A stretch of 64,000 nt of DNA from Escherichia coli (GTDB lineage: Bacteria; Pseudomonadota; Gammaproteobacteria; Enterobacterales; Enterobacteriaceae): NCBI RefSeq assembly GCF_045037415.1, contig NZ_CP173440.1. One strand, given 5' to 3'. The translations under genes were made by a program, and so were the position numbers. The notes below the pieces were generated by a model that was given only the letters and a program-made list of their open reading frames with translations, did no database searches and was not told where the DNA came from. Below are positions 56,786-58,660 of the stretch, piece after piece (positions within the stretch are counted from its first letter, which is position 1; each line of letters starts with the position of its first letter).

Positions 56786-58660
56786 ATGAATACATCAGCG
56801 GTATTTGAGTCTGCCGGATTGTCGTTACGTAAGGTCCAACAGGATTATATCGAGGCTGCAGCTGGTGCACTGACTCAGGATCATAAAGTTGCACTGATTA
56901 GTGCTGAAACAGGTGTAGGAAAAACGCTGGGCTATCTGGTACCGGCGCTTCTGATTCTGCTGAAAAACCCTGAGGCAAAATTTGTGATCGCCACGAATTC
57001 TCATGCCCTGATGCACCAGATATTCAGAAGCGATCGTCCTCTCCTTGAACAGATAGCTGAACAATGCGGCATAAAAGTTACTTTTTCCCGGCTTATGGGG
57101 AAAGCAAATTACGTATCCCTGGAGAAAGTACGTGGACTGTTACTCATGGACGAATTTACCGATCTGGATACGGTTAAGGTCCTTGAAAAACTCGCTAACT
57201 GGTCAAAACCTCTGGTTGAGTTTGAAGAAGAGTATGGTGAACTGCCAGCGCAGATCACGCCAGAGATGGTCACCTACTCCATCTGGGATGATATACAGGA
57301 CATTGATGATATTCGCCTGAATGCTCTCAGTGCTAACTTTATTGTTACGACCCATGCGATGGTAATGGTCGACTGTATGTGTAATCACCGCATCCTCGGT
57401 GACAAAGAAAATATGTACCTCATTATTGATGAGGCAGACATTTTTGTAGATATGCTTGAGGTCTGGAAACAGCGGCGCTTCAACCTCAGAGAGTTGACCA
57501 GTGCGTTCAATGAACATATTCCACGTAATGGCGTGCATGTCATCGACCAGTTAATGAACGACGTGACTTCGATAGCGGGCGATCTGCATTTTTGTAGTAC
57601 GCCTGCAGCGGTTGCCTTGTTTGACAATAGCTTTAACGCCTTATCAAAGGTAGGGCGGGAAATAAAAAATGAAGCGGCCCGGAAAGCTTTCTTTGACTGT
57701 ATCTACAGCTGGGAAATGCTCGGATTGTCCGGGGGGCAAAAGGGTGTAGGCGTTTCCAATAAACGTCGTGAACCAGCCCTGATCGCTGTAAACCCGTTTA
57801 TCGGGATGAATGTGGGCAGATACTGCACTCAATGGCGTAGTGCGTTACTGACGTCGGCTACGCTCTCAATTACCAGTACCCCAGAGACCGGAATGGAGTG
57901 GTTATGTAAAGCTCTGGGGTTAACCAGCGATACGATTTCAATCAGGAAAATATTCTCCCCAGACGTCTATGGCTCAATGAAGCTGACCATCGCCGGTGCT
58001 GATTTTCCAAAGGTGTTCGATGACCCGAAAGAACAGATATTTTCAGGTCAATGGTTAAAGGCAGTAGTTGAACAATTGTCCTGTATTCACGGGCCAGCTC
58101 TGGTATTAACTGCCAGCCATTATGAAACCCGGATGATTGCCAATCAGCTGGGTGAGGTCTCGCAACCAGTTTATATTCAGAAAGCAGGTCAGGCCCTGTC
58201 CGAAATTATTAAACAGTATCAGGAGAAACCAGGAATTCTGATTTCTGCCGGTGCTTCTGTTGGTGTGAGCCCACGAGGCGAGAATGGGGAACAGATTTTC
58301 CAGGATTTAATCATCACCCGGATACCTTTCTTACCTCCGGACAGAATGAAGGCTGAAAGCCTTTATGGGTATCTGAAGGAACGAGGCTATAGTCGTACCT
58401 TTGAGGCAGTTAACCGGAACATCTACCTGGAAAATTTGCGGAAAGTTATTCGCAAAGCAAAGCAGTCTGTAGGGCGGGGGATTCGTAGTGAAAATGATAC
58501 TGTCAGGATAATTATCCTCGATCCGCGTTTTCCGGAACCGACTGACCTTTCGTCTAAACATCGGTCGCTGGAACACATTATTCCCGTTCGATTTCGTCGT
58601 GAATATCGTTCGTGTGAAATTTTATCACCGGCGTATTTTGAAGAGGATATCCAGTGTTAA
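56786..58660 (+). CDS. dinG: type IV-A DinG (Csf4) helicase
   Basis: Walker A SAETGVGKTLGY, DEAD box LIIDEADIF, C-terminal helicase motifs (GRGIRS). ATG 56786 follows a GGGGAG SD. Confidence 0.9.
   Translation: MNTSAVFESAGLSLRKVQQDYIEAAAGALTQDHKVALISAETGVGKTLGYLVPALLILLKNPEAKFVIATNSHALMHQIFRSDRPLLEQIAEQCGIKVTFSRLMGKANYVSLEKVRGLLLMDEFTDLDTVKVLEKLANWSKPLVEFEEEYGELPAQITPEMVTYSIWDDIQDIDDIRLNALSANFIVTTHAMVMVDCMCNHRILGDKENMYLIIDEADIFVDMLEVWKQRRFNLRELTSAFNEHIPRNGVHVIDQLMNDVTSIAGDLHFCSTPAAVALFDNSFNALSKVGREIKNEAARKAFFDCIYSWEMLGLSGGQKGVGVSNKRREPALIAVNPFIGMNVGRYCTQWRSALLTSATLSITSTPETGMEWLCKALGLTSDTISIRKIFSPDVYGSMKLTIAGADFPKVFDDPKEQIFSGQWLKAVVEQLSCIHGPALVLTASHYETRMIANQLGEVSQPVYIQKAGQALSEIIKQYQEKPGILISAGASVGVSPRGENGEQIFQDLIITRIPFLPPDRMKAESLYGYLKERGYSRTFEAVNRNIYLENLRKVIRKAKQSVGRGIRSENDTVRIIILDPRFPEPTDLSSKHRSLEHIIPVRFRREYRSCEILSPAYFEEDIQC
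57074..57084. promoter_or_regulatory. intragenic copy of AAAGTTACTTT inside dinG
   Basis: Exact motif encoding KVTF, about 290 nt into dinG. Confidence 0.4.

Follow-up and report, generated by a model that had tools for sequence, protein, structure and literature searches.

Within a CRISPR-Cas locus of type IV-A3 carried on a 64,000-nucleotide stretch of Escherichia coli contig NZ_CP173440.1 (assembly GCF_045037415.1; hereafter, the window), the helicase gene dinG contains an exact copy of an 11-mer that recurs across the plasmid backbone. On balance, we favor the view that this 11-mer is a selectively kept site of a KorB-like regulator, which acts at a distance and ties the type IV-A3 locus to a plasmid-wide regulon. 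Under this reading, the 11-mer would be one copy, kept by selection, of a palindromic 13-bp site for protein binding, RAAAGTNACTTTY, that is dispersed over IncHI1B(pNDM-MAR)/IncHI5-type MOBH plasmid backbones, and its binder would most likely be the plasmid's own orphan 413-amino acid (aa) protein of the ParB/KorB fold. The site would have been written into dinG in the single tolerant reading frame, AAA GTW ACT TTY, which encodes K-V-T-F. Once bound or loaded within dinG, about 1.7 kb from the region upstream of csf1 where the cas promoter is presumed to lie, the protein would act remotely, in the manner of KorB at its distal OB sites. With a further copy located past the CRISPR array, the dinG copy would bracket the locus and couple cas and CRISPR expression to the plasmid-wide regulon.

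A dispersed palindrome on IncHI1B and IncHI5 backbones

The 11-mer AAAGTTACTTT is present in 25 exact copies in the window, both strands counted, compared to 0.04 expected from dinucleotide shuffles, which is close to the expectation of about 0.03 copies per 64 kb given in the initial annotation of this DNA; AAAGTNACTTT occurs 28 times compared to 0.08 expected. The full motif is a 13-bp palindrome that takes the form R-AAAGT-N-ACTTT-Y in 26 of the 28 copies, and its commonest 13-bp form, aAAAGTTACTTTt, is the one found in dinG. Nearly all copies are intergenic, mainly 5' of small backbone operons, and several lie 10-45 nt from a start codon. The motif is strongly depleted from coding DNA overall: in the near-identical annotated plasmid NZ_ON081623.1 (L001), which served as the reference and as the source of the dinG start codon (ATG at 56786), 5 of the 18 copies fall within annotated coding sequences, with a coding fraction of 0.76 (binomial P = 2e-5). 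These five are located in dinG, in the gene for an S49 peptidase, in a hypothetical gene of the tra region (two copies) and in mobH. In the window, the only copies in real genes are those in dinG and in a C5 DNA methylase gene, and both read K-V-T-F, a frame that fits the motif in both orientations (GTT and GTA both encode Val).

The motif is a property of particular backbones. It is abundant on IncHI1B (L001, 18 copies in 47 kb) and IncHI5 (L006, 17 copies in 50 kb), and is the top k-mer in the backbone L029. No copies were found in 50 kb of plasmid pKP-2683-1, in 50 kb of the F-type segment of a cointegrate, or in 22 kb around each of the Salmonella, Dickeya and Pseudocitrobacter dinG loci. 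The repeated motif of the motif-free outgroup plasmid pKP-2683-1 was considered and found to represent ordinary iterons around repB, not a dispersed operator. Thus, the traits of a KorB-type network are present, namely, many backbone copies far above chance, backbone specificity, and varied distances to promoters, including intragenic positions. The copies have no fixed site-to-promoter register and no flanks conserved in common. In seven copies judged by eye, the orientation of the center base does not follow that of the gene downstream, which speaks against an RNA-level explanation. The hypothetical tra-region gene carries copies inside its coding sequence both in L001 and in the distant backbone L029 (21088), at non-homologous positions, which appears to reflect binding-site turnover, as expected if selection is for some site in the region. 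In the searchable literature, we found neither a mention of the motif in connection with plasmids nor an account of the regulon.

Four copies of the motif (51306-52171) are located beside a Rep3-type replication initiator gene (52234-53385, minus strand), and in IncHI5, motif copies likewise lie beside repB (L006, 40772-41472), which suggests that the regulon also touches the replicon. An ISL3-family transposase gene (49864-51084) is inserted near the Rep3-linked copies.

The dinG site appears to be kept by codon choice

The dinG copy starts 288 nt into the gene, in frame, and reads AAA GTT ACT TTt, encoding K97-V-T-F100, in the context ggcatAAAAGTTACTTTTtcc; the position of about 290 nt into dinG (57074-57084) and the KVTF reading given in the initial annotation are thereby confirmed. 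The chance expectation for the 11-mer in a single 1.9-kb gene is about 0.001. In the DinG tree, ((window, IncHI5 pKP1814-1), (L008, L009)), members of the clade share 68-79% aa identity, and the outgroups are at about 50-55%. The exact 11-mer is found in three lineages with motif-bearing backbones (IncHI1B, IncHI5 and L008), which are 69-76% identical at the aa level, and it occupies identical codons in IncHI5 (73% nt identity) and L008 (69% nt identity). In L008, the flanks are g..c instead of a..t, so that the palindrome is kept, in its other common form. In the three-way codon alignment, the identical-codon rate at degenerate codons for the same aa is 0.31, and the all-identical run at the site coincides exactly with the 11-mer, fully conserved 11-nt windows being rare (6 of 1868, 0.3%). 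Apart from the 11-mer, no conserved DNA adjoins the site; 10 nt further downstream comes the next such run, which codes for the conserved LMGK motif.

The site could in principle be the product of coincidence, protein constraint and shared ancestry, whereby an inherited K-V-T-F happens to spell the motif. Indeed, V-T/S-F is widely conserved in DinG, where it forms the beta-strand preceding the LMGKxNY motif; the three site-bearing lineages are part of one clade, and conservation in the pairwise comparison is unexceptional. However, the probability of chance occurrence per gene is very low, as noted above, and K97 is not conserved: T, S, N, G or D is found in its place in other homologs. V-T/S-F is retained by five further lineages, written with other codons (GTGACGTTC, GTCACCTTC, GTGACATTC, GTCAGTTTC), with GTG ACG TTC, GTC ACC TTC, GTG ACA TTC and GTC AGT TTC in the outgroups, and L009 also uses other codons. 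Furthermore, the run conserved in all three site-bearing lineages ends exactly at the motif edges, the flank change in L008 preserves the palindrome, and a second gene behaves in the same manner independently (see below). We therefore disfavor this explanation and consider it very improbable. Because the motif-free outgroups use other codons and the conserved run matches the motif edges, the dinG site appears to be maintained by selection at the DNA level and not to be explained by protein constraint.

Thus, the view in the initial annotation that the coding copy is unlikely to be accidental holds, and the copy is specific to the backbone: the exact 11-mer is kept in three diverged, motif-bearing lineages, and across the dinG orthologs, the motif-free replicons encode V-T/S-F with other codons. 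For the four outgroup lineages with enough flanking sequence, no motif was found in the 22-50 kb of DNA surrounding dinG.

Closely related sequences add little to this comparison. The 785 plasmid records with this type of dinG are all at least 98.3% identical over 121 nt; a variant checked among them carries a single mismatch, outside the site, and the divergence is too low to inform on selection. All 15 metagenome contigs (15/15) belong to the two known dinG lineages. In several hundred of the 785 IncHI1B/IncFIB records, the cas locus has decayed and dinG is truncated (matches to aa 1-499, in pieces); one of these, a pLVPK-like non-mobilizable virulence plasmid (L031, NZ_CP033955.1), nevertheless retains an intact 13-mer. 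A 691-nt sequence assigned to 'Streptomyces malaysiensis' (L002, NZ_BAAAHF010000148.1) matches the Klebsiella plasmid dinG at 99% identity, the site included, and is almost certainly a contamination of that genome assembly.

Other features that might be placed at the dinG site were rejected. A structured RNA element is not supported, given the lack of an Rfam match in dinG and the unremarkable folding of positions 57030-57130 (z = 0.04). A 79-aa open reading frame (ORF) antisense to dinG (56825-57064), which starts 10 nt from the site, appears spurious, with no ribosome-binding site recognizable by eye. A recombination or mosaic junction is not indicated either, the identity to other lineages being similar on both sides of the site.

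An independent copy in a DNA methylase gene

The initial annotation implied that the coding copy in dinG was unique; the copy in the C5 DNA methylase gene (8650-8660) shows otherwise. The methylase site is also present in an IncHI5-type plasmid. In the homologous methylase of Salmonella plasmid p8025 (70-82% aa identity), the only changes are at the degenerate center (A to T) and at a single flank position (g to a), both of them synonymous, and the site follows the motif grammar in L032 and L034. The EcoRII-type homolog of IncN (L033) has a different peptide in this place and no site. Judging from these alignments, the methylase copy is an independent replicate of the behavior of the dinG copy. 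The coordinates of these sites and of the other features discussed here are listed in Table 1.

Table 1. Positions of the motif copies and associated features in the window, except where another replicon is named
Feature	Position	Strand	Details
dinG motif copy	57073..57085		13-bp palindrome aAAAGTTACTTTt; 11-mer core 57074-57084; codons 97-100
Methylase motif copy	8649..8661		gAAAGTAACTTTt; core 8650-8660; in C5 DNA methylase gene 7360-8787 (+ strand); K-V-T-F
Post-array motif copy	61474..61486		13-mer GAAAGTTACTTTC / gAAAGTTACTTTc; 11-mer 61475-61485; ~70 nt past last repeat
Six motif copies near ParB-like gene	31127..31885		five in the 660-bp intergenic region upstream of the gene, one further upstream
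Motif copies inside conjugation genes, tra region of NZ_ON081623.1 (L001)	39343, 41060, 41388, 44751		
Orphan ParB/KorB-fold protein (predicted)	29775..31016	-	413 aa; annotated 'hypothetical'
cas operon	55423..60397	+	ORF list and annotation
csf1/cas8-like	55423-56214	+	
cas6	56211-56783	+	
dinG (CasDinG/Csf4 helicase)	56786..58660	+	624 aa; NZ_ON081623.1 annotation; homolog Pfam DEAD/ResIII/Helicase_C_2
csf3/cas5	58654-59361	+	
csf2/cas7	59366-60397	+	
CRISPR leader	60398-60462	+	TATAAT present; no motif copy
CRISPR array	60463 to last repeat 61377-61405	+	29-nt repeats, 61-nt period
Two inverted IS4321 copies	26436-27773 and 53297-54634		segment 26436-43415 inverted relative to NZ_ON081623.1

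A ParB/KorB-fold protein as the candidate binder

The densest cluster of motif copies in the window lies upstream of the gene for the 413-aa protein and is presumed to be an autoregulatory or loading hub. Site clusters 5' of this gene were also detected in IncHI5, in L010 (from the same sample as L008) and, in a weaker form, in L029, that is, in four lineages including that of the window, with five or six copies in the close lineages and two or three in the distant one. Every locus in which tblastn detected the gene also bears the motif; in L029, the identity of the protein is 36% over the full length and 46% over conserved residues 17-247. This co-occurrence and the position of the gene suggest that the 413-aa protein binds the motif, including the dinG copy.

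Taken alone, the 413-aa protein had no meaningful match among Pfam, NCBIfam or PDB sequences (phmmer), and the same was the case for a profile of its close homologs; an AlphaFold2 model based on 8 close sequences was uninformative (predicted local distance difference test score, pLDDT, of 35). An exhaustive phmmer search yielded 255 relatives, and the fold was resolved with a profile and a model derived from 47 aligned sequences. Among these 47 relatives, the Pfam HTH_ParB domain was detected in 39 and the KorB domain in 8. The profile matches structures of ParB, Spo0J and Noc over the N-terminal and helix-turn-helix (HTH) domains (E = 1.5e-16 to 1e-13) as well as KorB (8qa8; 3e-5). The AlphaFold2 model built on the 47-sequence alignment reaches a pLDDT above 95 for residues 20-255, and its top Foldseek match in the PDB is the KorB-KorA-DNA complex 8qa9 (E = 1e-7, template modeling score 0.67), with ParB and Noc among the other top matches. 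Hence the 413-aa protein is predicted to have the ParB/KorB fold, with an N-terminal ParB/Srx-type domain followed by an HTH domain. Box II aligns as G101-H-C-R104-H-R106-A107, with G101 and R104 invariant in the family.

The genes next to the ParB-like gene are small and hypothetical, and none of them is annotated as ParA-type (window, L001, L003, L010 and L029 compared); as no ParA-type ATPase gene is adjacent, the 413-aa protein is an orphan ParB-like protein. In an un-rearranged plasmid, the site cluster, the ParB-like gene, four or five small genes, csf1-cas6-dinG-csf3-csf2, the array and the post-array site follow one another on one strand; in this ancestral arrangement, about 4 kb separates the ParB-like gene from the cas operon downstream of it.

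Together, these observations point to a ParB/KorB-fold protein as the candidate regulator, unlike the classical promoter-bound repressor that had been implied earlier. Given that the sites of ParB/KorB-family proteins act at a distance and are often intragenic, the splitting of the cas operon by the dinG site, which was suggested along with that repressor, is not required.

Possible action of the site on the cas locus

The locus fits type IV-A3, with the gene order csf1-cas6-dinG-csf3-csf2 and an array, no cas1 or cas2, and a plasmid location on IncHI1B/IncFIB, in agreement with the published description of the type IV-A3 hosts (10.1101/2023.06.23.546257). The cas genes abut or overlap, leaving no intergenic space for a site, so that a site serving the cas locus must be intragenic. 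The initial annotation was also correct in placing a second copy just past the array, and IncHI5 has a copy at the equivalent place (L003, 24758). About 1 kb separates the post-array copy from the leader, and about 1.7 kb the dinG copy from the presumed csf1 promoter region. KorB acts from OB sites located up to 1.5 kb from promoters (PMC11790492), and distal action of the KorB type fits the locus because both of these distances are about in that range.

Across the window, 8 of the 28 copies fall at about +4 to +20 when counted from the best promoter-like match, compared to 11% of random positions (P = 0.01), a weak enrichment for a range chosen post hoc. Along with the cluster upstream of the regulator's own gene and the copies that abut ribosome-binding sites, this enrichment makes repression of the cas locus the more likely sign of the effect. 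Both the sign and the magnitude of any influence on the cas genes are inferred, as is the sliding or spreading of the protein.

A classical internal operator or promoter, driving the 3' part of dinG, csf3, csf2 and the array, had been offered as an alternative, consistent with a site that splits the operon and with the location of some intergenic copies just downstream of promoter-like hexamers. However, no sigma-70-like pair of -35 and -10 elements was found within about 90 bp of 57074 on either strand, except for weak matches made by the motif itself; besides the 11-mer, nothing adjoining the site is conserved at the DNA level; and the array has a promoter of its own, the leader being used as such (PMC12714566). 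This part of the initial annotation is therefore not supported, and we regard an internal promoter at this site as improbable.

The regulator might instead be an activator or anti-silencer similar to VirB or BisD, such that loading in dinG relieves H-NS-type silencing of an AT-rich cas locus. The GC content of the backbone (45.5%) and the cas genes (46-50%) is well below that of the Klebsiella chromosome (about 57%), which makes such silencing plausible; no adjacent promoter would be needed, and ParB-like cytidine triphosphate (CTP) clamps that activate at a distance exist, VirB being one and BisD (PMC12409273) another. By contrast, the dense cluster at the regulator's own gene and the sites that abut ribosome-binding sites or lie at +5 to +20 look like autorepression and operators, and the closest structural match is the repressor KorB, although the fold does not decide the sign. 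We consider anti-silencing rather unlikely.

Alternatively, the ParB-like protein could bind the site, as one of many parS-like loading sites spread over the plasmid, for partition, compaction or nucleoprotein coating, with the dinG copy keeping the spacing between sites at about 5-6 kb or less through a long run of coding DNA. The ParB fold itself and the absence of a fixed promoter register are compatible with such a role, and chromosomal parS sites are commonly intragenic. Moreover, removing the dinG copy would leave a gap of about 10-11 kb between sites. By inspection, no other backbone gap in L001 or IncHI5 exceeds about 6 kb when insertion sequence and intron insertions are discounted. 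However, no ParA gene adjoins the ParB-like gene, and the spacing is not shown to be more regular than random. The bias of the copies toward intergenic DNA upstream of operons, including those 10-45 nt from start codons, and the +4 to +20 placement suggest transcriptional control instead. Hence, an architectural role is possible, although unlikely.

Several points weigh against distal regulation by a KorB-like protein as well. The dinG of L009, which is known from a short contig (SRR25400273), has lost the site (ACAGTGACGTT; ACA GTG ACG TTC), so that the site is dispensable in at least some contexts. The pairwise comparison of the window with IncHI5 is unexceptional, the run of six identical codons being one of five such runs in the gene, and the independent lineages are few (three with the site and five without). 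In the candidate regulator, box II reads GHCRHRA, not GERRxRA, with Glu and the first Arg replaced, which leaves CTP binding and clamp behavior uncertain, and other conserved backbone proteins could be the binder. Finally, in the window, the ParB-like gene with its cluster and the cas operon have been moved apart by an inversion flanked by IS4321.

In the vicinity of the locus, a group II intron is present just downstream of the array and the 61475 site (61771-63588; Rfam RF02005 at 61771-61996 and an ltrA ORF at 62101-63588). Between IS4321 and the cas operon, a 143-aa ORF (54929-55360, 36.8% GC) directly precedes csf1; its N-terminus has only weak P-loop (NB-ARC/AAA) similarity, and it may be a gene fragment or an accessory gene.

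Implications for type IV-A3 systems

IncHI1B and IncHI5 plasmids are the main carriers of type IV-A3 CRISPR-Cas and of multidrug resistance and hypervirulence in Klebsiella. To our knowledge, the native regulation of type IV-A3 CRISPR-Cas is essentially uncharacterized, and published work on these systems expresses the cas operon from heterologous promoters; the single intragenic copy in dinG offers a clean entry point to this native regulation. The motif and the ParB/KorB-fold protein define a candidate global regulon on IncHI1B/IncHI5 backbones, the vehicles in Klebsiella of NDM, CTX-M and hypervirulence determinants. From the two copies within coding sequences, it can be seen how codon choice can impose the grammar of a DNA-binding site on a coding sequence.

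More speculatively, these plasmids could possess an undescribed circuit in which a divergent orphan ParB-type clamp loads at dozens of 13-bp sites, some of them spelled into genes by synonymous codons, and controls CRISPR-Cas through the dinG and post-array sites, with a burst on entry that is then damped; we put this forward only tentatively. If such a circuit exists, a burst of cas expression in a new cell that is free of the regulator would silence resident rival plasmids. The conserved intragenic site provides a cheap handle, four synonymous codons or one 413-aa gene, on when and how an anti-plasmid CRISPR system is deployed.

Comparison with known plasmid and chromosomal systems

Among the characterized systems, KorB/OB of the IncP-1 plasmid RK2 is the closest counterpart. 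KorB is a plasmid-encoded ParB-family protein and the best structural match of the 413-aa protein, and its network likewise consists of a 13-bp palindrome with many backbone copies, at variable distances from promoters that include far ones, and with sites beside the regulator gene. RK2 has 12 OB sites on 60 kb; sites are denser here, with about one in every 2-3 kb of backbone. The distal action of KorB proceeds through sliding that depends on CTP (PMC11790492; PMC13584720). The differences are substantial: the sequence identity between KorB and the 413-aa protein, with its box II GHCRHRA, is only about 16%, and the KorB site is TTTAGC-S-GCTAAA compared to AAAGT-N-ACTTT here. KorB also has IncC (ParA) and KorA partners, and none were identified adjacent to the ParB-like gene, although no search aimed at a co-repressor of the KorA or TrbA type was made. 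The network described here is predicted from sequence.

Chromosomal ParB/Spo0J-parS and Noc-NBS systems are related through both domains, which are matched by the profile of the 413-aa family (E = 1e-16 to 1e-13). ParB, Spo0J and Noc bind palindromic sites, often inside genes. Unlike these proteins, the one encoded here is a plasmid orphan with no parA beside it, and its presumed sites tend to be promoter-proximal and intergenic, a bias that suggests regulation rather than segregation.

VirB of the Shigella plasmid pINV activates at a distance. Like the 413-aa protein in the reading favored here, VirB and BisD of ICEclc (PMC12409273) are orphan ParB-fold proteins of mobile elements that have specific sites and act on promoters at a distance; this likeness is by description. 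Unlike what is proposed here, they activate or counter silencing and have few sites, whereas there are dozens on the IncHI1B/IncHI5 backbones.

The ArdK/CUP regulon of IncN pKM101 and the ArdK/StbA/KorA network of IncW R388 resemble the present case in that one short operator is repeated upstream of small backbone operons. Such global repressor networks, which belong to leading and maintenance regions of conjugative plasmids, would let expression surge when a new host is entered and then be switched off. They differ in the protein families and site architectures involved, and their operators are embedded in promoters; we know of no emphasis, for these networks, on intragenic copies kept by synonymous constraint. 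Compared to all these systems, the present case involves a divergent, orphan member of the family with a different site, on a clinically important family of plasmids, and includes a CRISPR-Cas locus.

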